The notes under the pieces were generated by a model. The model saw nothing but the letters and a program-made list of their open reading frames with translations, searched no databases and was not told the DNA's origin. Made by a program: the position numbers and the translations under genes. Positions 2,137-57,078 of a stretch of 64,000 nucleotides of DNA are shown piece by piece. How positions within the stretch are numbered: position 1 is the stretch's first letter; each line of letters starts with the position of its first letter. Source of the stretch: an uncultured Gemmatimonadales bacterium (GTDB lineage Bacteria; Gemmatimonadota; Gemmatimonadetes; Gemmatimonadales; GWC2-71-9); NCBI GenBank assembly GCA_963748815.1, contig CAVVKJ010000014.1:32001-96000 (forward strand), given 5' to 3'.

Positions 2137-4578
2137 ATGCCTCGTCTGGCCTTGCGGTGGCGTAACGCACTCCTCCTGCCCTTCCTGATGCTCCCGCTCC
2201 TGGCCGGCGTCGCCGCGGCGCAGGACGCCGCTCCGGCGCATCGCCCGGGCGGGGAGGTCAACCTCCTGTTGCCCGACCTGAACCAGGGCAACTTCCTCGG
2301 GTATACCGGGCACCAGATCCTGCTCTCCGGGATCGTCGTGTGCGTCCTCGGCCTGCTCTTCGGGCTCTGGAGCTACGCCGCCGTCAAGCAGATGCCGGTC
2401 CACAAGGCGATGGCCGACGTGTCGGACATCATCTACGAGACCTGCAAGGCCTACATGATCCAGCAGGGCAAGTTCCTGATGGGGCTCTGGGTCTTCGTCA
2501 GCGCCGTCATCATCGTCTACTTTCTGCTCACCGGCCTCGAACTCCCCAAGATCGCCATCATCCTCCTCTTCTCGCTCATCGGCATGGCGGGGAGCTACGG
2601 CGTCGCCTGGTTCGGCATCCGGATCAACACGCTGGCCAATTCGCGCACCGCGTTCGCCTCGCTCCGCGGCAAGGGGTGGCCCGTCTCGGAAATCCCGCTC
2701 CGCGCCGGGATGAGCGTCGGGATGATGTTGATCGCGGTCGAGCTGCTGTTCATGCTCGGCATCCTCCTCTTCATCCCCGCCGACGTGGCCGGCGCCTGCT
2801 TCCTCGGCTTCGCCATCGGCGAGTCGCTGGGCGCCGCGGCGCTCCGCATTGCCGGCGGCATCTTCACCAAGATTGCCGACATCGGCGCCGACCTGATGAA
2901 GGTCGTGTTCAAGATCAAGGAAGACGACGCCCGCAACCCCGGCGTCATCGCCGACTGCACCGGCGACAACGCCGGCGACTCGGTCGGCCCCACCGCCGAC
3001 GGCTTCGAGACCTACGGCGTCACCGGCGTCGCGCTGATCACCTTCATCGTGCTGGCGGTGCCGGACACCACGGTGCAGGCCAAGCTGCTGGTCTGGATCT
3101 TCCTGATGCGGGTGATGATGGTCATCGCCTCGGGCCTCTCCTACCTCGTCAGCAACGCGGTGTCGAAGGCCAAGTACCGCGCCGCGGTGAAGTTCGACTT
3201 CGAACACCCGCTCACCCAGCTCGTCTGGCTCACGTCCATCGTCTCGGTCATCGCGACCTACGTCGTGTCCTACTTCATCATCCCGGAACTGGGCGGCAAC
3301 ACCGCGCTCTGGTGGCAGCTCTCCACGGTCATCAGCTGCGGCACGCTGGCCGGCGCGATCATCCCCGAGCTGGTGAAGGTGTTCACCTCCACCTCCTCGC
3401 GGCACGTGCGCGAAGTGGTCACCAGCTCCCGCGAGGGCGGGGCGTCGCTCAACATCCTGTCGGGCCTCGTGGCCGGCAACTTCTCGGCGTACTGGCTCGG
3501 CCTGACCATCATGGGCCTGATGGCCGCCGCCTACGGCGTCAGCACGATGGGGCTGAGCGACGGCATCATGCTGGCGCCCGCCATCTTCGCCTTCGGCCTG
3601 GTGGCGTTCGGGTTCCTCGGCATGGGCCCCGTGACCATCGCGGTCGACAGCTACGGACCGGTGACCGACAACGCCCAGTCGGTGTTCGAGCTCTCCACCA
3701 TCGAGCAGATGCCCGGCATCGAGGCGGAGATCAAGCGGGACTTCGGCTTCGACGTCGACTTCAACACCGCCAAGGAACTGCTCGAGGAAAACGACGGCGC
3801 GGGCAACACCTTCAAGGCCACCGCCAAGCCGGTGCTCATCGGCACCGCGGTCGTCGGCGCCACCACGATGATCTTCTCGATCATCATGGCGCTGACCCAC
3901 GGCCTCCAGAGCGGCATGGACAACCTGTCCATCCTGCACCCGCCCTTCCTCCTCGGCCTCATCACCGGCGGGGCGGTCATCTACTGGTTTACCGGCGCCT
4001 CGATGCAGGCGGTGACCACCGGCGCCTACCGCGCCGTGGAGTTCATCAAGGCCAACATCGTGCTCGAGGGCGTCACCAAGGCCTCCGTCGAGGACAGCAA
4101 GAAGGTCGTCGAGATCTGCACCCAGTACGCGCAGAAGGGGATGCTCAACATCTTCCTGGCGGTGTTCTTCTCGACGCTCGCCTTCGCCTTTGCCGAGCCC
4201 TTCTTCTTCATCGGCTACCTGATTTCCATCGCGCTCTTCGGACTCTACCAGGCCATCTTCATGGCCAACGCCGGCGGCGCCTGGGACAACGCGAAGAAGA
4301 TCGTGGAGACCGAGCTCAAGGCGAAGGGGACGCCGCTGCACGACGCGTCCATTGTCGGCGACACGGTCGGCGACCCCTTCAAGGACACGTCGTCGGTGGC
4401 GCTCAACCCCGTCATCAAGTTCACCACGCTCTTCGGCCTCCTGGCCGTCGAGCTCGGCGTCTACCTGGCCGCCGAGAAGGGCAGCGTGCTGCTGCACGTG
4501 CTGGCCGTCGCCTTCTTCCTGGTGAGCACCGTCTTCGTGTACCGGTCGTTCTACGGCATGCGGATCGAAACGCAGTAA
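2137..4578 (+). CDS. hppA: membrane-bound H+/Na+-translocating pyrophosphatase
   Basis: GGIFTKIADIGADL, EDDARNPGVIAD, GDNAGD, AGGAWDNAKK and GDTVGDPFKDT motifs; many transmembrane helices. Confidence 0.95.
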   Translation: MPRLALRWRNALLLPFLMLPLLAGVAAAQDAAPAHRPGGEVNLLLPDLNQGNFLGYTGHQILLSGIVVCVLGLLFGLWSYAAVKQMPVHKAMADVSDIIYETCKAYMIQQGKFLMGLWVFVSAVIIVYFLLTGLELPKIAIILLFSLIGMAGSYGVAWFGIRINTLANSRTAFASLRGKGWPVSEIPLRAGMSVGMMLIAVELLFMLGILLFIPADVAGACFLGFAIGESLGAAALRIAGGIFTKIADIGADLMKVVFKIKEDDARNPGVIADCTGDNAGDSVGPTADGFETYGVTGVALITFIVLAVPDTTVQAKLLVWIFLMRVMMVIASGLSYLVSNAVSKAKYRAAVKFDFEHPLTQLVWLTSIVSVIATYVVSYFIIPELGGNTALWWQLSTVISCGTLAGAIIPELVKVFTSTSSRHVREVVTSSREGGASLNILSGLVAGNFSAYWLGLTIMGLMAAAYGVSTMGLSDGIMLAPAIFAFGLVAFGFLGMGPVTIAVDSYGPVTDNAQSVFELSTIEQMPGIEAEIKRDFGFDVDFNTAKELLEENDGAGNTFKATAKPVLIGTAVVGATTMIFSIIMALTHGLQSGMDNLSILHPPFLLGLITGGAVIYWFTGASMQAVTTGAYRAVEFIKANIVLEGVTKASVEDSKKVVEICTQYAQKGMLNIFLAVFFSTLAFAFAEPFFFIGYLISIALFGLYQAIFMANAGGAWDNAKKIVETELKAKGTPLHDASIVGDTVGDPFKDTSSVALNPVIKFTTLFGLLAVELGVYLAAEKGSVLLHVLAVAFFLVSTVFVYRSFYGMRIETQ

Positions 4579-4587
4579 CGGACCGAT

Positions 4588-5643
4588 ATGACACCGACTG
4601 CCGCACCGAGCACCACCCCGGCCGCCCCGCCGCACGGGCTGAGCCGGGCCCAGCTGCACGAGATGTACTACTACATGCGACTGACCCGCTCCCTCGAGGA
4701 GCGGCTGGTCAACCTGTACCGCCAGACCAAGGTCATCGGCGGGCTCTTCCGGTCGCTCGGCCAGGAGGCCGACAGCGTCGGCAGCGCCTACGCCCTCGAC
4801 CGCACGAAGGGTGACTTCCTCTCGCCCCTCATCCGGAACCTCGGATCGATGCTGGTGCAGGGCGCCAAGCCGCTGGAGATCCTCCGGCAGTACATGGCCA
4901 AGGCGGAGAGCCCGACGCGGGGCCGCGAGCTCAACATCCACTACGGCGACCTCGAACGGGGGTTCATCGGGCAGATTTCCCACCTCGGCGACATGGTGCC
5001 GGTCATGGCCGGCGTGGCGCTCTCGTTCAAGATGCGGAAGCAGCCGAGGGTGGGGCTGGTCTACGTGGGCGACGGCGCGATGAGCACCGGCGCCTTCCAC
5101 GAGGGCATCAACTTCGCCGCCGTGCAGCGCCTGCCGATGGTCATCGTCTGCGAGAACAACGGGTACTCGTTCAGCACGCCGATGCGGAAGCAGACCGCCG
5201 TGAAGCAGCTCGTCGACAAGGCCGCGGCCTACGGCATCCCCGGGGAGCGGGCGGACGGCAACGACGTGCTCGCCGTGTACGGCGTCACCAGGCCGGCGGT
5301 GGAGCGGGCGCGGCAGGGCGGGGGCTGCACCCTGATCGAGCTGGTCACCTACCGGCGGAAGGGGCACGCGGAGCACGACAACCAGTCCTACCAGTCCAAG
5401 GCGGAGATCGCGGAGTGGGAGGCGAAGGACCCCGTCGATCGGTGCGTCCGCGACTACCTCGCGGCGGGGTGGGCCACCACCGCGGAGCTGGCGGCCATCG
5501 ACGCCCGGGTCGAGGCGCTCCTCGACGAGGCCGTCGGGATCTGTGAGAATGAGCCGATGCCCGGGGCGTTGACGGCGCTCGACGGCGTGCTGGCCGACCC
5601 GGCCCGCGCCGAGCTCGAATGGTACCGGAGGACCGATGGCTGA
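4588..5643 (+). CDS. 2-oxoacid (pyruvate/branched-chain) dehydrogenase E1 alpha
   Basis: GDGA...NN ThDP-binding motif; TYRRKGHAEHD loop. Confidence 0.9.
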   Translation: MTPTAAPSTTPAAPPHGLSRAQLHEMYYYMRLTRSLEERLVNLYRQTKVIGGLFRSLGQEADSVGSAYALDRTKGDFLSPLIRNLGSMLVQGAKPLEILRQYMAKAESPTRGRELNIHYGDLERGFIGQISHLGDMVPVMAGVALSFKMRKQPRVGLVYVGDGAMSTGAFHEGINFAAVQRLPMVIVCENNGYSFSTPMRKQTAVKQLVDKAAAYGIPGERADGNDVLAVYGVTRPAVERARQGGGCTLIELVTYRRKGHAEHDNQSYQSKAEIAEWEAKDPVDRCVRDYLAAGWATTAELAAIDARVEALLDEAVGICENEPMPGALTALDGVLADPARAELEWYRRTDG

Positions 5644-42424: not shown

Positions 42425-42996
42425 GTGATCGGGCTGTTCGGGGGTTCGTTCGACCCGATCCACGCCGGACACCTGATCGTGGGACGGGCGGTGGCGGAAT
42501 TGCTCGGGCTCGAGGAACTGCGGTTCATGCCGACGGGGGAGCAGCCGCTGAAGCAGGGGCGGCACCAGGCCAGCGCCCGCCAGCGGATCGCGATGGTGGC
42601 CGCGGCCGTCGCGGGCGAGCCGGGCCTCGCTCTCGAAGCGAGCGAGGCGGAACGGCCCGGTCCGTCGTACACGGTGGACACCCTGCGGGCGCTCCGGGCG
42701 CGTGAGCCGGGGCGGGAATTCGTCGTGCTGCTCGGCGCCGATGCCGTCGCCGATCTCGACCGGTGGCACGAGGCGGCGGCCCTGCCGGGCCTCGCGCGGC
42801 TGGTCGCCTTTACCCGGGCGGGCGCTCCGCGTCCCGCCCACCCAATGCTCCACCAGGTGGTGGACGCACCCGCCGTCGAGATCTCCTCGACGGCCATCCG
42901 GCGGCGCGTGGCGGCCGGACGCTCGATTCGCTATCTCGTCCCCGACGCGGTCGCCGCGGTCATCGCGGCCCAGGGGCTGTACAGGAACGGACTGGA

Positions 42997-43000
<4 letters not shown>
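42425..43000 (+). CDS. nadD: nicotinate-nucleotide adenylyltransferase
   Basis: [22 protein letters not shown] and ISSTAIR motifs. Confidence 0.93.
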
Positions 43001-46134
<3,134 letters not shown>

Positions 46135-46191: not shown

Positions 46192-46875
46192 GTGCCCGCC
46201 TCCCTTTCCCCCCCGGCCGTCCCCGACCTCCCCCGGGAGCGGCTCTGGGCCCTCGGGCCCTCCGCGTTGACGCCGGGCGAACTTCTCGCCATCCTCCTAG
46301 GGACCGGCAGTTCCACCACAAGCGTGACCGAGGTCGCTGCCCGCCTCCTGGAGGCGGGGGGTGGGTCCTTGCGCCGCCTGGCCGCCCGCCCGCCGGCGGA
46401 GCTGCTCCAGGTCCCCGGGGTGGGCACCGCCAAGGGGGCACGGCTCCTCGCCGCGTTCGAGCTCGCGGCCCGGCTGGCCGGGGAAACCCGCCCCGCGCGG
46501 CCCCGGATCGGGGAGCCGGCGGACGTGGCTCGGCTGCTCGGGCCGCGGCTTCGCGATCTCGAGGTCGAGGAGTTCCGGCTGCTGGCGCTCGACAGCCAGA
46601 GCTGTGTCCTGCGGGAGGTCCTGGTCACCCGGGGACTGTTGAACAGCTCCCTGGTGCATCCCCGCGAGGTCTTCCGGCCCGCCATCGCGGAGGCGGCGGC
46701 GGGCATCATCGTGGTCCACAATCACCCGAGCGGGGATCCGACCCCCTCGGCCGAAGATCAGGCGGTGACCCGGCAGCTGGTGGCGGCCGGGCGCCTCCTG
46801 GACCTGCCGGTGTACGATCACGTCGTGATCGCCGGCGATCGTTTCGTCAGCTTTGCCACCGCAGGACTCCTGTGA
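46192..46875 (+). CDS. radC: RadC/UPF0758 JAB-domain protein
   Basis: PRERL, ELLAILLGTG, VHPREVF, HNHPSGDPTPS.ED and DHVVI motifs. Confidence 0.92.
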   Translation: MPASLSPPAVPDLPRERLWALGPSALTPGELLAILLGTGSSTTSVTEVAARLLEAGGGSLRRLAARPPAELLQVPGVGTAKGARLLAAFELAARLAGETRPARPRIGEPADVARLLGPRLRDLEVEEFRLLALDSQSCVLREVLVTRGLLNSSLVHPREVFRPAIAEAAAGIIVVHNHPSGDPTPSAEDQAVTRQLVAAGRLLDLPVYDHVVIAGDRFVSFATAGLL

Positions 46876-49062
46876 CCGCTCCGACGCTCGACCTCGCCCC
46901 CGAACTTCGTGCCGTGCTGGCGAAGCACGCCGACCGCCTCGATCTGGACCTGATCGAGCGGGCGCTGCGCTTCAGCACCTCGGCGCATCACGGCCAGAAG
47001 CGGGCGTCCGGCGAGGAGTTCATTTCCCACAGCATCGCCGTGGCCATGATCCTGGCGGAGCAGCTGCCCGACTCGACCTCGATCGCGGCGGCGCTCCTCC
47101 ACGACGTGGTCGAGGATTCCGACGTCGGCGTCGAGGACATCGCCCGCGACTTCGGCCCCGAGGTCGGCGTCATCGTCGACGGCCTGACCAAGATTTCGCA
47201 CCTCACCTTCCGCTCCACCGCCGAGGAGCAGGTCGAGAACTACCGCAAGCTGCTGCTGTCGATCGCCAAGGACGCGCGGGTCATCATCATCAAGCTCGCC
47301 GACCGCCTGCACAACATGCGGACGCTCGAGCATCTCGAGCCCGCAGAAGCGCGCCCGGATCGCCACGGAGACGCGGGAAATCTACGCGCCGCTGGCGCAT
47401 CGCTTCGGCATGGCGCGGCATGAAGGCCGAACTCGAGGACCTCGCCTTCCGGTTCCTGGAGCCGGAGGAGTACAAGGCGCTCTCGGAGCAGGTCGCGGCC
47501 GAGCGCGAGGCGCGCGAGCAGATGATCGACCGGCTCCGCCGGCCGCTGGAGGACGAACTCAAGCGGGCGGGGATCGCCGCCGAGGTGACGGGGCGCCCGA
47601 AGCACCTCTGGTCCATCGAGCAGAAGATGAAGCGGCGCGGCAAGCCGTTCGACGAGATCTACGACCTGATGGCGGTCCGCGTCATCGTGGCGACCGTCCC
47701 GGAGTGCTACCACGTCCTGGGCATCATCCACCACAACTGGACGCCGCTGCAGGAGCGCATCAAGGACTACATCGCCAGCCCCAAGTCCAACGCCTACCAG
47801 TCGCTGCACACCACCATCTTCGGGCCCGGGGGCGAGCTCTTCGAGGTGCAGATCCGCACCAAGGAGATGCACCGCACGGCGGAGTACGGCATCGCCGCGC
47901 ACTGGGTGTACAAGAACGAGGGCAAGGGCGACGACGAACTCGACCAGGCGCTCGGCTGGTTCCGCCAGCTCCTCGAACTGCAGCAGGACACCCACACCCC
48001 CGAGGAGTTCCTCGAGTTCCTCAAGGTGGACCTGTACCAGGACGAGATCTTCATGTTCACGCCGCAGGGGGACGTGAAGCGGCTCCCCAAGGGTGCCACG
48101 CCGATCGACTTCGCCTTCCACGTGCACACCGAGGTCGGCCTCAAGTGCCAGGGCGCCAAGATCAACGGCCGGATCGCGCCGCTGCATCGCGAACTGAAGA
48201 ACGGCGACACCGTGGAGATTCTCACCAGCCAGCACGCCCGGCCGAGCCGCGACTGGCTCAACCACGTGCATACCGCGCGCGCGCGGCACAAGATCAAGCA
48301 GTGGATCCGGGAGGAGGAGGAGTCGGTCAGCCTGCAGATGGGCCGAGAGATTCTCGCCCGCGAGACGCGACGCCGCCGGCTCGACGCGCCGGCGCCGGAG
48401 CAGCTCGAGCGCGGCGCCGTCGCCCTCGGCCTCCACAGCGGGACGGCGCTCGAGATCGCGATCGGCCGGGGCGACGTGGCCATCGGGCAGGTCTTCCGGG
48501 TGCTCTATCCCGACCGGCCGCCGGATGAACTCGCAGGACCCGAAGCCGACCGTCTTCGGCCGCCTGGTGGACCGGATCCGCCTCGGCCGCGGCATCAAGA
48601 TTCACGGGGTCGACGGCCTCATGGTGCGGTACGCCCAGTGCTGCCAGCCGGTGCCGGGCGATCCGGTGTCGGGCTACGTGACGCAGGGCCGGGGCATCTC
48701 GATTCACCGCGCCGACTGTCCCAACCTGCTGACGCTGAGCTCCGAGGGGCGGCGGGTGGACATCGACTGGCAGGAGGTGGAGGGCGAGGCCTTCTCGGTG
48801 CGGCTGGCGCTCTCAGGGGAGGATCGGCGGGGGCTCTACGCCGACATCATGTCGGCCATCAGTTCCACCGGCACCAACATCCGGTCGGCGCGATATCCAT
48901 ACCAAGGACGGCACCGTCTTCGGCACCGTCTTCGTCGAGGTCGACAACATCGCGCATCTCGCGAAGGTGCTGAAGGCGGTGCGGCGGGTCAAAGGCGTCG
49001 TCGAGGTGGAGCGCCGGGAGGCGCCGGGGCCGGCAGGGCCGGGGGGCAGCGGGGCGGCCTAG
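46872..49062 (+). CDS. relA: RelA/SpoT (p)ppGpp synthetase/hydrolase, four +1 frameshifts
   Basis: LLHDVVED, KLADRLHNMRTL, GRPKHLWS, YQSLHT, TGS domain (PIDFA), AQCCQPVPGD and ACT domain. Confidence 0.92.
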
Positions 49063-49901
49063 TTCCCGATCACACAGCGCGTTGGATTCCCGGACTCATA
49101 GCCGCGCATGAACCACTCGCTGCGCTGCGCCGCCGAGCCGTGGGTGAAGGCGTCCGGGTTCACGTACCCGCCCCCCATCCGCTGGATGCGATCGTCGCCC
49201 ACCGCCGCCGCCGCCGCCAGCCCCTCCTCGATGTCGCCCCCCTCCAGCAGCCCCCGCGATCGGGCCGAACTGGCCCAGATGCCGGCATAGCAGTCGGCCT
49301 GGAGCTCCAGCGCGACGGAGTAGGCGTTGGCCCGCGACGGGTCGCGCTGCTGGGCGCGGCGCATCTCGGCCTCGGTGCCGATGAGGTGCTGGACATGATG
49401 CCCGATCTCGTGGGCCAGCACGTAGGCCTGGGCAAAGTCGCCGGGCGCGCCGAAGCGGTCCCGCAACTCGTCGTAGAACCCGAGGTCGATGTAGACTTGC
49501 GAGTCGCCGGGGCAGTAGAAGGGGCCGGTGGCCGATTGCGCGTAGCCACAGGCGGACTGTACGCCGTCGCGGAAGAGGACCAGCCGCGCGTCGCCATACT
49601 GGGCGTCGCTGCCAGCGAAGATGGTCGCCCACGTCTGCTGGGCGTCGTCGAGTACGTAGGAAATGAACTGCTTCGTCGAGTCCTCGGCCGGCGAGGAAAC
49701 GGGATCCGAACCCGCCGTGACCGACGGCTGGTCGTCCGCAAACCCTCCGGCCAGGGAGAGAAAGTCCCGCTTGAAGACGATGCTCAGGATGAGCAGGATG
49801 ACGATGCCGCCGAGACCGAGCCGGCCCCCCGGCATCCGCCCGCCTCCGCGGCCCCGGCGGTCCTCGACGTTGGAACTCTGATAGCCACGCTGCCACTTCA
49901 T
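49059..49901 (-). CDS. neutral zinc metallopeptidase (YpfJ family)
   Basis: SSNVEDRRG, GPFYCP, AHEIGHHVQ, ELQADC and FTHG motifs. Confidence 0.92.
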   Translation of the reverse strand: MKWQRGYQSSNVEDRRGRGGGRMPGGRLGLGGIVILLILSIVFKRDFLSLAGGFADDQPSVTAGSDPVSSPAEDSTKQFISYVLDDAQQTWATIFAGSDAQYGDARLVLFRDGVQSACGYAQSATGPFYCPGDSQVYIDLGFYDELRDRFGAPGDFAQAYVLAHEIGHHVQHLIGTEAEMRRAQQRDPSRANAYSVALELQADCYAGIWASSARSRGLLEGGDIEEGLAAAAAVGDDRIQRMGGGYVNPDAFTHGSAAQRSEWFMRGYESGNPTRCVIGN

Positions 49902-49945: not shown

Positions 49946-50341
49946 ATGCCTCAATATTGGCTGATCAAGACCGAGCCGTCCACCTATTCGTTCGACGACC
50001 TTGCGCGGGAACAGGTCACGACCTGGGACGGCATCAAGAACGCGCTCGCGCTCATCCACCTCCGCGCGATGCAGCCCGGCGACGGCCTCCTGATTTATCA
50101 CTCCGGGAAGGAAAAGGCGATCGTGGGGCGGGGGAGCGTCGTGGCCCCGCCGCGCACCAGCGGGAAGGTGACAGTGGTGGACGTGCGATGCGAGGCGCGC
50201 CTGGCGTCGCCGGTCACGCTGGCGCAAATCAAACGGGAGCCCGGCCTGGCCGGGCTCCCGCTGATCCGCAACACCCGGCTCTCCGTCATGCCTGTCACCG
50301 CCGACGAATGGGAGGCGGTGAACCGGGTGGCGCGTGGATAG
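49946..50341 (+). CDS. EVE domain protein
   Basis: YWLIKTEPSTYS, WDGIKN, MQPGD..IYHSG and RLSVMPV motifs. Confidence 0.9.
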   Translation: MPQYWLIKTEPSTYSFDDLAREQVTTWDGIKNALALIHLRAMQPGDGLLIYHSGKEKAIVGRGSVVAPPRTSGKVTVVDVRCEARLASPVTLAQIKREPGLAGLPLIRNTRLSVMPVTADEWEAVNRVARG

Positions 50342-50359: not shown

Positions 50360-51691
50360 TCAGATGCCGGTACAGCACGCCGTGCCGCAGCGCGACCAGG
50401 TCTTTGCGTCCGCTTCACTCCAGTTCCATCGGGCGGCGGCGGCCGGGATGACGTCACCGCCGTGGGTGCGACGCCGTACGCAGTAGTAGTACGGGTCACC
50501 CGCTGCCGGAGTGACTCGGCCCCACCAGGTGTCCTGGGAGTCGGGATCGATCCCCGTGCAGTGTTTGGCTCCCGCCGGTATGCTGCAGTCGCTCTGCGTC
50601 CCGTTGCAGATATCGACCCGGTTCATCCCGGCTTGCATTGGATACTTCGCGGAATACGTCGCATCCACGAATACGTAGGCGCTGGGTATCCAGGTGCTCC
50701 GGTAGGCGTCCACCGCGACCGAATCCAGCGCAGGCTGAGGAAAGACCACCCCCGAGACATCGGCCAGGATCAGCCGGCTATCCTCCGTCCGCAGGTCGAG
50801 ACGCTGGCGATCGGACCATCCCTTCACTGCCACCACGCGCAGCACTTCGTCCGGTGTGGCCTGGTGGACTCCCGATTTGGGGATGGGCACGACCGCCGCA
50901 AGGAACTCCGCCCCCTCCGCGGTGCCGTCGGCCGGGTCGGATGGCGCGAAGCCGGGCGCGCCAACCTCGCACCATGTGTCGCCGCACCGGATGCCGATGT
51001 ACTGCTGACGGTTCTTCTTGTCCCAGTCCCACCGCGCCACCGGAGGAATGTCCCGGGGCTTCAAGGGCGGAGGCGGCGCCACGGGGAGCACCTCGAGCTC
51101 GGTCCCGGCAAGGATGGCGCGACTCGCGGTGTCGATGGGAGCCAGGCACCGAGTCGGCTCCGATTCCACCGGCGGTTTGTCCCCGAGGGCGACGAGCGTG
51201 CCGTGCCAGGTACCGTCGTTCCAGAGGAAGAGGCAGTTGAATCCGGGCTTGATGCCGAGCGGGGCGTAGTCGTGGTCGGCGTCGAAGTTGTATAGGACAG
51301 CCACCGGAACGGCCTTGCCGTTGAGGGAGTCCCCTCGTGCAAAGGCGAGGTCAAGCTGGTTCGCGGCCCAGACCGCCACGAGCGGCCCGAAGGCCAGGCT
51401 GTCGCTGGACGGCGCCGACGCGAGCCCCGAAGTCGTCGCCGGGATGACGAATCGCTGGCAGTCATGGAACTCGGGCATGTCGGCAATCGGGCCGACCAGC
51501 GGAAGGCTCGAACCGGTGAGGCTGTCGTGCTCCGAGGTCCAAATGACCAGGTGGTCCTGCTGGCAGTCATTCTTCAACGATGTATCGGGTGGTTTGGGGG
51601 GCCAGGGGCAGGCGACCAAACCAAGCGCGGCCAATCCGGCCACTGTCCACCAGGTCCATCTGCTCGTGTTGGCACGTCCGCTTGTTCGCAT
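50360..51691 (-). CDS. Cys-rich putative lipoprotein of unknown function with an internal duplication
   Basis: 443-aa ORF, LVAC lipobox, 14 Cys; lies directly downstream of the kinase gene. Confidence 0.75.
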   Translation of the reverse strand: MRTSGRANTSRWTWWTVAGLAALGLVACPWPPKPPDTSLKNDCQQDHLVIWTSEHDSLTGSSLPLVGPIADMPEFHDCQRFVIPATTSGLASAPSSDSLAFGPLVAVWAANQLDLAFARGDSLNGKAVPVAVLYNFDADHDYAPLGIKPGFNCLFLWNDGTWHGTLVALGDKPPVESEPTRCLAPIDTASRAILAGTELEVLPVAPPPPLKPRDIPPVARWDWDKKNRQQYIGIRCGDTWCEVGAPGFAPSDPADGTAEGAEFLAAVVPIPKSGVHQATPDEVLRVVAVKGWSDRQRLDLRTEDSRLILADVSGVVFPQPALDSVAVDAYRSTWIPSAYVFVDATYSAKYPMQAGMNRVDICNGTQSDCSIPAGAKHCTGIDPDSQDTWWGRVTPAAGDPYYYCVRRRTHGGDVIPAAAARWNWSEADAKTWSRCGTACCTGI

Positions 51692-51733
51692 CGATCCCCC
51701 CGGGATAAGAGGCTGTTGGCGTGATTCCGGTAT

Positions 51734-54700
51734 TCAGTGGGTGAGCGCCTTCATTTCCTCGACGAGCGGTTGCAGGAAGTCGTCCGCGCCCGACCACAGG
51801 GCGAGCACCGCCTGGGCCCAGGCCCTTGCCGCGACACGATCTCCCTCCCGCTCCGCCAGCCTGGCGCGAAGCGCCATCGCCCGCACCAGCGGCCCCGCCT
51901 GATAGACCTCGAGAAAGAGCTGGGGTGGTGTCCGGGGGAGGGCGGTCAGGATCGGGTCGAGCCACGCCACCGCCGAACCGTCGTCACCCAGCTCGGCCAT
52001 CAACCACGCCGTGCCATAGCCGAGGTCGATGGTCCGCTCGCCCGGCTGATCCGGAGGCCTCATGGCGACATGCGGGGCCAGCGCCCGTCGGGCGCCCGGC
52101 AAGTCGCCGCGGAGGAACGCCGCATCGGCGTTCAGGAGGCCCGTGCCCGCGCCGGCCAGCTGCTCGACTTCCGGAAACTGAAACGCGGGAAAGCCGACGA
52201 GGATCGGGAGGTGGAGCCACATCTCCTCGGCCCGGGAGCGGACCTCCGGGTCGACGGACGCCTCGAGCGCTCGGCCTACCTGGGGCGCAAGCACCCGCAG
52301 GCTGTCGACCGGGCCGCCCATGGACGCGTAGGTGAGAAAGGTGATGCCGATGCCGACCAGCGCCGGCGGCGTGTCCGGGCGGGCCCGACTGGAAATGCTC
52401 CGACCCAGGCGTGCCGCCAGGTGGGCCCGGCCGGTGAGTGCCGCCAGGCTGGCCAGGAGCATCGGCTCCACGGAGCCGTCCGTCGGGGCGTGATCGAGCA
52501 GGGAATCGGCAAGCCGTCGCGCGGCGCGAAGTTCCCAGAAGCCCGCGGGGGCGTTGAACAGGACGCGCATCCAGACTTCCGAGGTGGCGACCCGGATGGT
52601 CTCGCCCGGATTCCGCGCCAGCCGCCGTGCCTGCTCAAGGGTGTCGAGCGCCGAGCGATCCCCGAGCAATTGGAGCGAGACCGCGAGCGCCTGCAGGGCA
52701 TCGGCATTGGACGGGTAGGCGGCGACCCAGCCGCGTGCGATGTCGTAGAGACGCTGCCGCTGGTGGCGGATCGCCTCACGGGTGGTCGGATCGCCCGACG
52801 TCACGATCTCCGTCCCCGCCGCCCACTCGATGGGGAACAGCACGAGGGTGTCCCCCTGCCACGAGGGGAATGCGTAGAACTTCGCGGGGTCTGGCGGCGG
52901 TCCCTCGCCGCGCCGAAAATCGGTGCCGCTCGCCAGCAGCAGGTGGACCATCTTCGAATACGATTCGGTGCGGAGATCCTTGAGAATGGAAGGGAGGAGC
53001 GCATAGGCTTGCTCAAAGGCGCGCAGCGCGGCGTGGTAACTGGACCGGAATCGCCAGGTGGTGGGCGACCGGGGGTCTCGCACCACGACCCGGTCCTGCT
53101 GCAGGCAGACAGCCAGGCCGTACCAGACGACAAAGTCGAAGGCGTGCGCGGTGGTCAACGCCTCCCATCGTTCGCACGCGGCGAGAATATCGCCCTGGGC
53201 CTGCGCCAGGACGGCCTCGGCGATCTCGCGGTCACGGATTGACAGGTCGCTCCGGGCGGCCACCGCGCGTTCGGCCGACGACCGCCAGGTGGCGGGTGCG
53301 GATGGATCCACCCAGAGGCGCACGAGGGCGAGCCAGAGGTGGGCCTGGGCGTATGCGGGATCAAACCGCAGGGCGGCGACGAAATGCGAATCTGCGGCGG
53401 TGAGATTCCAGTCGTTAATCGCGGAAGTCCCTTCCTCGAACGCCTGGCGGGCCGGCAGCGAGGTCGTCCGGCCCGCCGGCTGATAGCCGCCGGTGACCCC
53501 CGCATTCACCAGGAGCCGTTCGCCCAGTTCGGTGAACGCGGCATCTCGGCCGTTGAGATCGGCGGGGATGCGCACCGCATGCTCCCGGAGCACCGGGTTG
53601 ACACTCCCGGGCGCCACGCTGTACAGGACCGCGTGGATGCGGATCGAATCGCCGATCCGGGAGGCGTCGGCACGGATGTACCGTCCGGCCCCCAGCTGCG
53701 CCGCAAAGCGGTCCCACTCCCGGCGGGAATAGCCGGCGGTGTCGCGCCGGGCGACGGCCTCGCGGACCTGGAACGGATCGACCACGTGAATGCCGTTCCA
53801 CCGGCCCAGGGCGTCCTGGAGCAGGAGGGAGGGATGCAGCAGCTCAGGGACGCCGGAGTCTTCGCTGAACGAGACGATCGCGTACCGGGTGGTGTCGAGC
53901 GCGGCCGCGGCACTTTCGGCGCGGCGCTGCGCGGCCCCGCCGCCGGCGAGGTACCAGGCGCCGGCGACCCCGACGCCCGCCAGGAGGAGGAACCCCCACG
54001 TGCGCCGGCGCGCGGAGGGCGGGCGCGACCGCAGCGTCGTCGGCTCCCAGCCCCCGGAGGCCGTCGGCTGCAGGGCCTCGATGAACTCGCCCGCGGTCGC
54101 AAACCGGTCCGCCGGAGATTTCTCCAGCGCGCGCATCACCGTCCGCTCGACCGACAGCGGCACCGAGGCGCGGATGGTGCGGAGCGACGGCACCTGGTCC
54201 ATCCGGTGCCGCGCCAGCACCGCGTGCGGGCTGATGCCGGTGAACGGCGGCTCCCCGCCGAGCATCTCGTACAGGACGCAGCCGAGGGAGTAGAGGTCGC
54301 TCCGTCCATCGAGATCCGGCTCACCGCCTGCCTGCTCGGGCGACATGTATGCCGGCGTGCCGATGACGAGGCCGGCACTCGTCACCGCGTCCGGATCGAC
54401 CGCCTCCCGCACCGCGCGGGCGATGCCGAAGTCGGCCACCACGGCGTGCCCGTCCATCAGGAGGATGTTGCCCGGCTTGATGTCGCGGTGCACCACGCCG
54501 CGCCCATGCGCGTGCCCCAGCGCGGCGGCCACCTCACGCGCGATCTGGAGCGACTCGTCGAGCGGCAGCTGCTTCTCCCGGAGCAGGCGCTCGCGCAGCG
54601 TCTCCCCTTCGACGTACGGCATGGTGTAGTACGGCAGCGCCGGCGACTCGTCGGTTGGCGGAATGGTGCCCGAGTCGAGCAGCGGCAGGATGTTCGGGTG

Positions 54701-54913
54701 GGTCAGGTCGGAGGAAATGCGGATTTCTCGGAGGAAGCGCCCCCGGGTCATCACCCCGGCGAGCTCAGGGCGGAGGACCTTGATCGCGACGTGGCGGGGA
54801 TGCTTGAGCTCGCGGGCGAGGTAGACCGTGGCCATCCCCCCGCGGCCCAGCTCCCGTTCGAGCTGGTACGTGTCGGCCAGCGCACGCTGAAGGGAACTGA
54901 AGAGATCGTCCAC
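51734..54913 (-). CDS. Hanks-type Ser/Thr kinase with a transmembrane helix and TPR-like C-terminal region
   Basis: GRGGMATV, VAIKVL, HRDIKPGN, DFG, TPAYMSPE and DLYSLG motifs; GGAGG SD before the GTG at 54913. Confidence 0.9.
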   Translation of the reverse strand: MDDLFSSLQRALADTYQLERELGRGGMATVYLARELKHPRHVAIKVLRPELAGVMTRGRFLREIRISSDLTHPNILPLLDSGTIPPTDESPALPYYTMPYVEGETLRERLLREKQLPLDESLQIAREVAAALGHAHGRGVVHRDIKPGNILLMDGHAVVADFGIARAVREAVDPDAVTSAGLVIGTPAYMSPEQAGGEPDLDGRSDLYSLGCVLYEMLGGEPPFTGISPHAVLARHRMDQVPSLRTIRASVPLSVERTVMRALEKSPADRFATAGEFIEALQPTASGGWEPTTLRSRPPSARRRTWGFLLLAGVGVAGAWYLAGGGAAQRRAESAAAALDTTRYAIVSFSEDSGVPELLHPSLLLQDALGRWNGIHVVDPFQVREAVARRDTAGYSRREWDRFAAQLGAGRYIRADASRIGDSIRIHAVLYSVAPGSVNPVLREHAVRIPADLNGRDAAFTELGERLLVNAGVTGGYQPAGRTTSLPARQAFEEGTSAINDWNLTAADSHFVAALRFDPAYAQAHLWLALVRLWVDPSAPATWRSSAERAVAARSDLSIRDREIAEAVLAQAQGDILAACERWEALTTAHAFDFVVWYGLAVCLQQDRVVVRDPRSPTTWRFRSSYHAALRAFEQAYALLPSILKDLRTESYSKMVHLLLASGTDFRRGEGPPPDPAKFYAFPSWQGDTLVLFPIEWAAGTEIVTSGDPTTREAIRHQRQRLYDIARGWVAAYPSNADALQALAVSLQLLGDRSALDTLEQARRLARNPGETIRVATSEVWMRVLFNAPAGFWELRAARRLADSLLDHAPTDGSVEPMLLASLAALTGRAHLAARLGRSISSRARPDTPPALVGIGITFLTYASMGGPVDSLRVLAPQVGRALEASVDPEVRSRAEEMWLHLPILVGFPAFQFPEVEQLAGAGTGLLNADAAFLRGDLPGARRALAPHVAMRPPDQPGERTIDLGYGTAWLMAELGDDGSAVAWLDPILTALPRTPPQLFLEVYQAGPLVRAMALRARLAEREGDRVAARAWAQAVLALWSGADDFLQPLVEEMKALTH

Positions 54914-55031
54914 CCCGGCACCTCCATCCCGGCTACCATACCGTCCGTTCGAAATTCGGGCAAGCGGACCGGAGCGGTGATGCAACGCCCCGACCCTACC
55001 GAACATTTCCCGAAAGTGCTAGATTTGGCGG

Positions 55032-57078
55032 ATGGCTACCACCCTGTTCAAGGTCGAGGCGCCGTTCGAACCCGCGGGCGACCAGCCCCGCGCCATCGAG
55101 GAGCTCACCGCCGGGCTGCGCCGGGGCGATGCCTACCAGACGCTCCTCGGCGTGACCGGCTCCGGCAAGACGATGACCCTCGCGAACGTCATCGCCGCCT
55201 ACGGCCGCCCGACCCTGGTCCTCTCCCACAACAAGACCCTCGCCGCGCAGCTCTACGGCGAATTGCGCCAGTTCCTGCCCACCAACGCGGTGGAGTACTT
55301 CGTCTCGTACTACGACTACTACCAGCCCGAGGCCTACGTCCCGAGCTCCGACGTCTACATCGAGAAGGATGCCTCGATCAACGAGGACATCGAGCGGCTG
55401 CGGCTCCGCGCCACCTCCAGCCTCATCGAGCGGGAAGACGTCGTGATCGTCGCCACCGTCAGCGCCATTTACGGCCTCGGTGATCCGGTCGAGTACCGCG
55501 CCCAGATGGTCACGGTGGAGCAGGGGAGCGAACGGGGGCGGGATTCAATCCTCGAGGCGCTCGTCGCCATCCAGTACAGCCGGAACGACGTCAGCTTCGA
55601 GCCCGGCACCTTTCGCGTCCGGGGCGACACCGTCGAGATCTTCCCCGCCTACGAGGAGCGCGCCGTCCGCATCGAGCTCTGGGGCGACACGGTAGAGCGA
55701 ATCACCAAGATCAATCCGCTCACCGGCGAGGCGCTGCAGGCCATGCCGCGCTGCGCCATCTACCCGGCCAAGCATTTCGTGACGCAGCGGGCCAAGATCG
55801 AGCGCGCGGTGCGCATCATCCGCGAGGAACTCGCCGAGCGGCTCAAGGTGCTCCGTGAGGCTGGCAAGCTGCTCGAAGCGCAGCGGCTCGAGACCCGCAC
55901 CCACTTCGACATCGACATGCTGCTCGAGGTCGGCATCTGCTCCGGCATCGAGAACTACTCCCGCCACCTCAGCGGCCGCGCCGAGGGCGAACGCCCCGCC
56001 TGTCTCTTCGACTACTTCCCGCCGGAGTTCCTGGTGGTGGTGGACGAGTCGCACGTCACCCTGCCCGCAGATCGGCGGGATGTCGAACGGCGACCGGGCC
56101 CGGAAGGAAACGCTGGTCGAGTACGGCTTTCGCCTCCCGTCGGCGCTCGACAACCGCCCGCTCCGGTTCGACGAGTTCCTGGCCCTCGCCCCACAGATGA
56201 TCAACGTCTCGGCCACGCCGGGCGATCTCGAACTCAAGCTGTCGGGCGGCGCCATCGTCGAGCAGATCATCCGCCCCACCGGGCTCATCGATCCCCTGGT
56301 CGAGATCCGGCCGGTCAAGGGCCAGGTCGACGACCTGCTGCACGAAATCCGCGAACGCACCCGTCGCAAGGAGCGGGTGCTCGTGACCACCCTCACCAAG
56401 CGGATGTCCGAGGACCTCACCGACTATTTCCAGCAGCACGGGGTCGCGGTGCGCTATCTCCACTCCGACATCGACGCCATCGAGCGGATCGAGATCCTGC
56501 GCGGCCTCCGCCTTGGCGACTTCGACGTGCTGGTCGGCATCAACCTCCTCCGCGAGGGGCTCGACCTCCCGGAGGTGTCGCTGGTGGCCATTCTCGACGC
56601 CGACCAGGAGGGGTTCCTCCGCTCCGACCGTTCGCTGATCCAGACCGTCGGCCGGGCCGCCCGCCACCTCGGCGGGCTCGGCATCCTCTACGCCGACCGG
56701 ATCACCGGCTCGATGGAACGGGCGCTGCGCGAAATGGACCGGCGCCGCGCCATCCAGGTCGCCCACAACGAGGAGCACGGCATCACCCCGCGCTCCATCG
56801 TCAAGTCGTTCGAGCAGGTGCGGCTCTCCACCTACGTGGCCGACGCCCGCGCCGAGAAGGTCGAGCCGATCGCGGCGGGGTCGCTCGTGCGCGAGGACCT
56901 GCACGACCCGGCCGTCCGCGCCAAGACCATCGCGGCGCTGGAGCGGCAGATGAAGGAGGCGGCGGCCAACCTGGAGTTCGAGCTCGCGGCGCTCCTCCGC
57001 GACCAGGTGAACGACCTCAAGGCGTCGGGCGCTCCCGACGTCCGGCGGGACGGCGGTCGACGGCGGAGGTTCGCCTGA
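55032..57078 (+). CDS. uvrB: excinuclease ABC subunit B, +1 frameshift near 56065
   Basis: [36 protein letters not shown] and UVR-domain motifs. Confidence 0.95.

Follow-up and report, generated by a model that had tools for sequence, protein, structure and literature searches.

What does the periplasmic part of a bacterial receptor kinase respond to? Receptors in which one transmembrane (TM) helix joins a Ser/Thr kinase to a tetratricopeptide repeat (TPR) region are common in several bacterial phyla, and the accessible portions of two papers describe the function of the TPR region as mostly unknown (PMC11032199, PMC13147305). The question is raised anew by a two-gene locus of an uncultured Gemmatimonadales bacterium (GTDB lineage GWC2-71-9, assembly GCA_963748815.1). 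The 64,000 nucleotides analyzed here (contig CAVVKJ010000014.1, positions 32,001 to 96,000) are called the window, and coordinates without a locus name count from its first letter. The minus strand of the window carries the gene of a receptor Ser/Thr kinase (P0001; 51734..54913; 1059 aa from a GTG start), which comprises a kinase domain, a single TM helix and a TPR-type ectodomain predicted to be periplasmic. Directly behind it lies the gene of a partner (P0002; 50360..51691; 443 aa), an exported Cys-rich protein modelled as all-beta and built from two repeats.

The two genes belong to a receptor-partner family whose partner varies and has an unmatched fold and whose output is exchangeable; this family is real, strongly conserved and undescribed. 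We favor a reading in which the partner is the receptor's dedicated activating periplasmic input, which would bind and cluster the receptor (probability roughly 0.6).

Results

Partner genes are found beside receptor genes almost without exception. A neighbor of this receptor's ectodomain family is present in 74/74 evaluable GTDB loci and in 64/65 evaluable metagenome loci, which agrees with the pairing proposed in a sequence-only reading of the window. Among 77 GTDB partner loci (the best 80 of 86 matches were kept) the ectodomain family lies immediately upstream in 72 and directly downstream in two, while three have less than 700 nt of upstream sequence. In the 79 metagenome loci the ectodomain is upstream in 63 and convergent in one, and 14 are too short. 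The gene uvrB adjoins the module in only 7/77 GTDB loci; the linkage is kept in varied neighborhoods, at 20-35% identity, and also where the gene order has changed (L032, L039, L220).

The coupling also holds in the opposite direction. Ectodomain residues 590-1059, searched against 401 genomes of the phylum, had 114 matches (E<=1.3e-10), including the own genome and the unpublished genome G157, and 99/104 examined receptors have an adjoining partner. For this count 26 receptors were judged by coordinates and 78 of the other 88 by locus sequence, with ten left out, G157 among them. The partners are 26 two-repeat proteins (those judged by coordinates), 72 one-repeat proteins and one two-repeat protein located upstream; five receptors have none. 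One-repeat partners are exported proteins of about 200-290 aa (typically about 220 aa), encoded downstream and mostly ending in W..C..gCC. The one-repeat profile had been seeded from 46 of the same genes that it counts and was therefore cross-validated: 68/68 held-out members were recovered at E<1e-5 with clusters of >33% identity left out, and the best-scoring non-members listed were partner genes or fragments thereof. Two stretches that had been chosen from partner matches (L233, L234) show no ectodomain.

Tandem partner copies of 29-60% identity stand behind one receptor in 7/77 GTDB and 7/79 metagenome loci (among them L003, L004, L010, L026, L037, L050, L081, L093, L096 and L115). L010 has a second receptor after its two partners.

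Of the labelled relatives 76/77 GTDB loci belong to Gemmatimonadota, the remaining one being a 2.6-kb contig labelled Planctomycetota. The ectodomain was not found in 151 genomes of the latter phylum, a set that holds no positive genome, the same query being positive in the 401-genome search. The partner has 122 matches in a search clustered at 90% and 913 representatives in one clustered at 50%. Only 10 proteins came back when homologues were sought with the one-repeat alignment, the word filter of that search being too strict to gauge the range.

The partner follows the periplasmic ectodomain rather than the kinase. In a midpoint-rooted FastTree phylogeny of 136 ectodomains, with metagenome loci left out, L220 and the 61 ectodomains whose partners have two repeats group in a single clade (support 1.0, read from the tree without a formal clade test). 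Pairs with more similar ectodomains also have more similar partners (rho 0.50 between the identities; partial 0.38 given kinase), whereas the partial correlation of partner identity with kinase identity given ectodomain is 0.006 (n=48 in both cases). One-repeat pairs give a rho of 0.56 between partner and ectodomain identity (n=58), and the median identities of this set are 21% for partners and 36% for ectodomains. Furthermore, the kinase can be exchanged while the partner stays. In L047 and L051 a BTAD domain replaces the kinase on the same TM-ectodomain (Pfam), and the same swap is apparent by eye in L228 and L230, where Pfam gave TPR or nothing; the partner is retained in all four. The resulting one-component membrane regulators (BTAD-TM-ectodomain) are located at L047:1962-5258, L051:2024-5335, L228:2519-5821 and L230:1-2820, and L051 appears to carry extra TM segments. 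Five comparisons gave dN/dS values (ratio of nonsynonymous to synonymous divergence) of 0.08-0.40, which indicates purifying selection on the two genes and gives no sign of overall positive selection (gene-wide values, dN/dS<0.4). At synonymous sites the module has diverged about twice as far as uvrB (dS, synonymous divergence).

The receptor was described in the sequence-only reading as an intact kinase domain, one TM helix and about 700 aa of TPR-like region, and all three parts are confirmed. The Hanks-type kinase domain (about residues 16-281; 54071..54868, minus strand) matches PF00069 (Pkinase) at E 1.6e-42 with intact G-loop, VAIK, HRD, DFG and APE-type motifs; HRD, DFG and VAIK-type motifs are kept in 48/48 relatives. 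The TM helix (about residues 306-324; 53942..53998, minus strand) follows an Arg cluster and is moderately hydrophobic in P0001 (Kyte-Doolittle value, KD, 1.5), and 79/80 relatives reach KD>=1.5 against 7% of control windows. Relatives have on average 3.3 Lys or Arg residues before the TM segment and 1.5 after it, which suggests a cytoplasmic kinase and places the ectodomain outside; this predicted topology derives from hydropathy and the positive-inside pattern.

The 724-aa C-terminal region forms the ectodomain (residues 336-1059; 51737..53908, minus strand). It is TPR-like by a TPR_17 match (E 0.0015), by matches to consensus-TPR structures in the PDB (down to E 3.5e-8) and by membership in TPR clusters. 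Its N-terminal approximately 265 aa are common to other receptors of the genome (nine other ORFs match) and weakly resemble TIGR04510, a cyclase (E 6e-7, far below cut-off), and for these reasons we regard this part as a generic module. The remainder is family-specific and TPR-like. No Pfam TolB match was seen, although JGI names a few relatives "TolB-like". Within the TPR region lies a conserved, family-specific insert (about residues 605-700; 52814..53101, minus strand; SPSGWRFRSSY, F.A.P.W.GD.LAF), the consensus of which is present in both receptor clades. The pattern occurs in 50/61 and 40/75 family members, in 0/4 receptors of the other allele described below and in 0/7 other receptors of the genome. 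This insert is a candidate partner-docking site. The genome holds 44 ORFs or fragments with a kinase match, with a single full copy of this ectodomain and a single partner. Head-to-tail arrays of about 11 and 6 receptor kinases lie on two contigs of G000, C2 (41.6 kb) and C19, without this partner family.

The partner had been characterized as a 14-Cys lipoprotein without a recognized domain, and this description was borne out: it has 14 Cys, a signal peptide with the lipobox LVAC28 (Cys28; 51608..51691, minus strand) and no match in Pfam, NCBIfam, PADLOC or PHROGs. Likewise, no recurring Pfam family was found in 61 one-repeat partners. By our own rule a lipobox-like N-terminus is present in 57/87 two-repeat and 53/70 one-repeat partners, and most others have a plain hydrophobic N-terminus. 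As the lipobox is found in only two thirds to three quarters of partners, export and anchoring appear to matter more than lipidation. Thirteen of the 14 Cys are conserved at 82-100%, the lipobox Cys not being one of them, and the protein is probably held together by disulfides. Invariant polar residues of the two-repeat family are E74, H76, D77, Q79, R220, D294, R421 and D428, to which vicinal Cys are added; in one-repeat members the D77-, H- and D-equivalents reach only 51-61%, and positions above 85% are mainly Cys, Trp, Gly and Pro.

An AlphaFold2 model of P0002 (pLDDT 90) consists of two nine-stranded halves, repeat 1 (about residues 66-252; 50936..51496, minus strand) and repeat 2 (about residues 284-443; 50363..50842, minus strand), the latter ending in the family motif W..C..GCC; repeat 1 modelled alone reaches pLDDT 92. 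In profile-profile comparisons the halves align to each other (P 95.7, E 9e-9) and to the one-repeat family (P 92.8 and 97.8; repeat 2 at E 7.5e-13), which identifies P0002 as an internal duplication of a one-repeat partner. No clear structural match emerged from Foldseek (best E 1.5e-3, probability 0.10, TM-score 0.10 for the whole partner; E 0.23 for one repeat) or VIA, a result that establishes neither a different nor a new fold. The best VIA matches are solved propellers, with Z 5.8 over 180 aligned residues (rmsd 4.9) for the whole partner and Z 4.4 over 80 (rmsd 3.5) for one repeat; these scores do not exceed the background that the tool states for unmatched models. A sequence-profile search of the PDB reached E 0.079 at best, and the sole ESM Atlas match was an unnamed "Lipoprotein" cluster at 0.75 with low recognition. 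A match to a known enzyme family, which would have contradicted the proposed signalling role, was not found in Pfam, NCBIfam or the structure searches. Three partner homologues (P0101, P0117, P0119) carry an extra Ig-like Big_2 domain ahead of the core.

Two kinds of transcription regulators recur beside the module and are likely outputs of the receptor. In 12/77 GTDB loci a separate BTAD gene stands at most 750 nt from the module, against 1.4 expected anywhere in 619 kb of flank; the expectation uses the density of this genome, and kin loci are not independent. BTAD-kinase-ectodomain fusions occur in L189, P0309, P0315 and also P0361. Genes resembling ECF43 (a group of extracytoplasmic function sigma factors) closely flank L018, L065, L216, L217, L222 and L226, of which L065 passes the TIGR02999 cut-off; such a gene lies within 300 nt of the module in 2/77 GTDB loci. 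The genome of the window has seven BTAD-like and two ECF43-like ORFs, both of the latter on another contig.

The sequence-only reading had also called the module accessory, and the slot between EVE and uvrB supports this. Among 15 same-genus loci from 14 genomes it is empty in eight, holds this module in three and another allele in four. The other allele has a 70-83% identical kinase, a different TPR ectodomain and no partner of this family (2/4 loci are cut by contig ends). It is followed by a basic peptide of about 65 aa with CC and a PPPPKWPPA end (L271:3876-4076, plus strand; L274:2744-2950, minus strand; coordinates approximate) or by a 99-aa lipoprotein ending in PPPKYPPS (L270:3907-4206, plus strand; coordinates approximate). 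The next gene in L271 and L274 encodes an exported protein that weakly matches a zinc metallopeptidase. The other allele may be a second receptor-ligand system. Both alleles occur in one genome bin, G403, on contigs C300 (L274) and C332 (L273), and the bin is possibly a mix of strains. A close relative in the same slot (L267 of G401, 3274-4689) has its partner in frameshifted pieces and a frameshifted receptor C-terminus, either by decay or by sequencing error.

Discussion

We propose that receptor and partner are the two parts of a single envelope sensor. The partner would be exported and membrane-anchored, usually as a lipoprotein, and would bind its cognate receptor through the periplasmic TPR ectodomain, where the conserved insert (about residues 605-700) is the most probable docking site. 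By this contact it would control receptor clustering, with activation as the most likely sign. One-repeat partners might work in pairs, as dimers, and the fused repeats of a two-repeat partner might form a pseudo-dimer bridging two receptors. Once clustered, the kinase would autophosphorylate and then phosphorylate a transcription regulator, often a winged helix-turn-helix (wHTH)-BTAD protein similar to Streptomyces antibiotic regulatory proteins (SARP), sometimes an ECF43 sigma factor. Specificity would reside in the fast-diverging ectodomain-partner pair, and the cytoplasmic output would be exchangeable.

Several observations weigh against this proposal. Adjacency and parallel divergence are also expected from plain linkage, and the partial correlations could arise without contact, because on the DNA the kinase and partner sequences are separated by the ectodomain, and the kinase domain is both more conserved and shorter than the ectodomain. 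As the genomes are related, neither the counts nor the BTAD excess represent independent events. The coupling has exceptions, namely a metagenome partner locus without an ectodomain (L147, the sole one among those evaluable) and 5/78 receptor loci without a partner by rule (L207, L229, L231, L232, L235; L229 shows one by eye). A strict one-to-one lock is hard to reconcile with tandem divergent partners. In the window the module has neither a BTAD nor an ECF43 gene beside it, so that the substrate of this receptor should be encoded elsewhere, and the analogy for the output is weakened by AfsK, the phosphorylation of which activates AfsR only slightly according to the part of the source consulted (PMC10936776).

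Do other explanations fit better? That the genes only travel together in a small mobile cassette, with no function in common, would agree with the presence or absence of the slot within the genus and with the doubled dS of the module, but linkage through varied neighborhoods, low identity and changed gene order speaks against it. Also, no mobile-element gene was seen by eye among the recurrent neighbor clusters, and we consider this explanation largely refuted. A more serious alternative, though still an unlikely one, sees the partner as a regulated output, a lectin-like or adhesive effector of the surface or periplasm kept in the operon without binding the receptor. In favor of this view, the highest-scoring, though weak, structural matches of the partner are to lectins and glycosidase propellers (Z<=5.8 for the whole protein, <=4.4 for one half), some members have the Big_2 domain, divergent copies stand in tandem, and the other slot allele also has exported proteins behind it, one with the weak metallopeptidase match. 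An output, however, should follow the cytoplasmic domain, and this partner outlasts the kinase-to-BTAD swap and is missing where the ectodomain is different; the propeller matches, moreover, do not exceed background.

If the partner does bind the ectodomain, it could instead be an inhibitor that silences the kinase and is removed upon envelope stress, mis-trafficking or a failure of disulfide formation, i.e. the same binding step with the opposite sign. The same coupling data and the thirteen conserved Cys would suit such a mechanism, and in Xanthomonas citri the periplasmic TPR region of PknS may restrain auto-activation, as far as the source was available (PMC13147305). The divergence of one-repeat partners (21% against 36% for the ectodomain) seems to exceed what a generic stress monitor would need; on balance inhibition strikes us as improbable. 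Less probable still is an enzymatic partner in the periplasm (a hydrolase or disulfide-exchange protein, for instance), with the receptor sensing its product or redox state. The invariant polar residues of the two-repeat family and the vicinal Cys would suit such a role, but one-repeat members do not keep all of these polar residues and no enzyme family was matched. The activating input remains our preferred reading.

This reading can be extended, at present doubtfully, to a lock-and-key system in which each receptor allele recognizes only its own linked, fast-diverging Cys-rich ligand, possibly of a new fold, as a signal of self, kin or density. The other slot allele, including its PPPK[WY]PP-ending peptide or lipoprotein and, in two loci, the exported metallopeptidase-like protein, would then be a second pair. 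If true, this would offer a general route to de-orphan bacterial kinase-TM-TPR receptors, their ligand being encoded next door. A comparable arrangement is the Brassica S-locus, where the receptor kinase SRK is tightly linked to the polymorphic Cys-rich SCR/SP11. This is an analogy only and no homology is claimed; the partner here is a membrane-anchored all-beta protein of 200-440 aa with an overall dN/dS <1.

The sequence-only reading knew of no described system with this partner. This holds for the partner family, for which no description was found, but not for the principle, since receptor Ser/Thr kinases with lipoprotein input are already known. A Gemmatimonadota receptor-partner pair was not found in the literature searched, most subscription papers and supplements lying outside the search, and a recent preprint deals, in its accessible part, with histidine kinases only (10.64898/2026.09.01.748587). 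The closest parallels, in the accessible parts of the sources, are the PpkA systems. In the H1 type VI secretion system (H1-T6SS) of Pseudomonas aeruginosa an inner-membrane Hanks kinase with a periplasmic domain has co-encoded lipoprotein or periplasmic partners, TagQ/TagR, which are proposed to dimerize PpkA and thereby activate it (PMC13713981), and RtkS of Serratia marcescens is a co-encoded partner that controls a PpkA of the same layout (PMC6082577). TagR uses an FGE domain, whereas the partner here has no Pfam or NCBIfam family, the ectodomain is a TPR-type region of about 720 aa and the output, apparently a transcriptional one, looks exchangeable. Among recurrent neighbors no T6SS or FHA gene was recognized by eye, no T6SS profile search having been made. 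In the actinobacterial GlnH-GlnX-PknG system a co-conserved lipoprotein likewise serves as extracytoplasmic input to a TPR-containing Ser/Thr kinase; that kinase, however, is cytoplasmic and depends on GlnX as a membrane relay, and its lipoprotein input, GlnH, binds solutes, as far as the source could be consulted (PMC6069109). Here the kinase has its own TM helix, no relay gene is present, and the Cys-rich, all-beta (modelled) partner has no solute-binding match.

The receptor layout itself is shared with PknS of the PknS-EcfK system of X. citri (ECF43), a cytoplasmic kinase with one TM helix and periplasmic TPRs (PMC13147305), and with kinase-TM-TPR receptors of Planctomycetota and Myxococcota (PMC11032199); the portions of these sources that were available name no partner protein or ligand for them, and, unlike in PknS-EcfK, no sigma gene stands beside the module in the window. 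On the output side PknH-EmbR is a case of a Ser/Thr kinase clustered with a wHTH-BTAD regulator. AfsK-AfsR is another, by the accessible part of its source (PMC10936776). In the family described here BTAD adjoins the kinase, is fused to it or replaces it on the TM-ectodomain.

The family thus comprises receptors with a nearly obligate partner, identified by position, in about 100 examined loci, and this partner folds confidently (pLDDT 90-92) yet no solved structure clearly matches it. Cognate and non-cognate pairs occur naturally, partners come with one or two repeats, and the output is a kinase or a DNA-binding regulator; with these natural pairs and variants the input question can be tested on purified domains without culturing the host.

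Further observations on the window

As the sequence-only reading had stated, the ORF coordinates give two co-oriented minus-strand ORFs with a 42-bp gap, flanked by EVE (49946-50341, plus strand) and uvrB (55032-57078, plus strand). Its statement that they run against plus-strand flow is correct for these two flanks but not for a Zn-peptidase gene (49059-49901), which is also on the minus strand. The gap (51692..51733, minus strand) ends in a G-rich, ribosome-binding-like run, and a terminator scan found no terminator-like site in it; terminator-like sites were found twice against 1.5 expected. The receptor ORF could be extended to 55006, but the GTG at 54913 is favored as start because GGAGG stands 7 nt ahead of it. 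Upstream lies a promoter-like element, TTGCCC-17 nt-TATGGT (54932..54964, minus strand), which by eye is present in 5/5 occupied same-genus alleles and in 0/6 empty ones and thus travels with the cassette; a sigma-70 promoter scan gave 0 sites, the element being under its threshold. Three metatranscriptome runs of one study yielded the same three contigs in every run (161-202 nt, depth 3-4, 0-1 mismatches); two of them fall in the receptor gene and one in the partner gene, a finding that demonstrates neither transcription nor co-transcription.

Codon usage outside the kinase domain had appeared more A/T-rich. The G+C content of third codon positions (GC3) is indeed mildly low, 0.81 in the partner and 0.84-0.86 in the ectodomain against 0.91 in the kinase domain, but with ranks at the 19th (partner) and about the 37th percentile (ectodomain) among 1117 coding-like frames of the genome it is not anomalous, so that the claim is weakly supported at most. 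A recent foreign origin by codon bias is rejected on these percentiles. An anti-phage or phage origin is also unsupported: ectodomain and partners matched 0 PADLOC families, the partner matched nothing in PHROGs, and the NCBIfam matches MAD6 and PglW are confined to the kinase domain and far below cut-off.

Three housekeeping genes of the window are broken across frames, namely those at 42763-46134 and 46872-48973, which we take to be secA and a relA/spoT-like gene, and uvrB; these breaks are probably assembly indel errors. The kinase and partner ORFs, in contrast, are intact.

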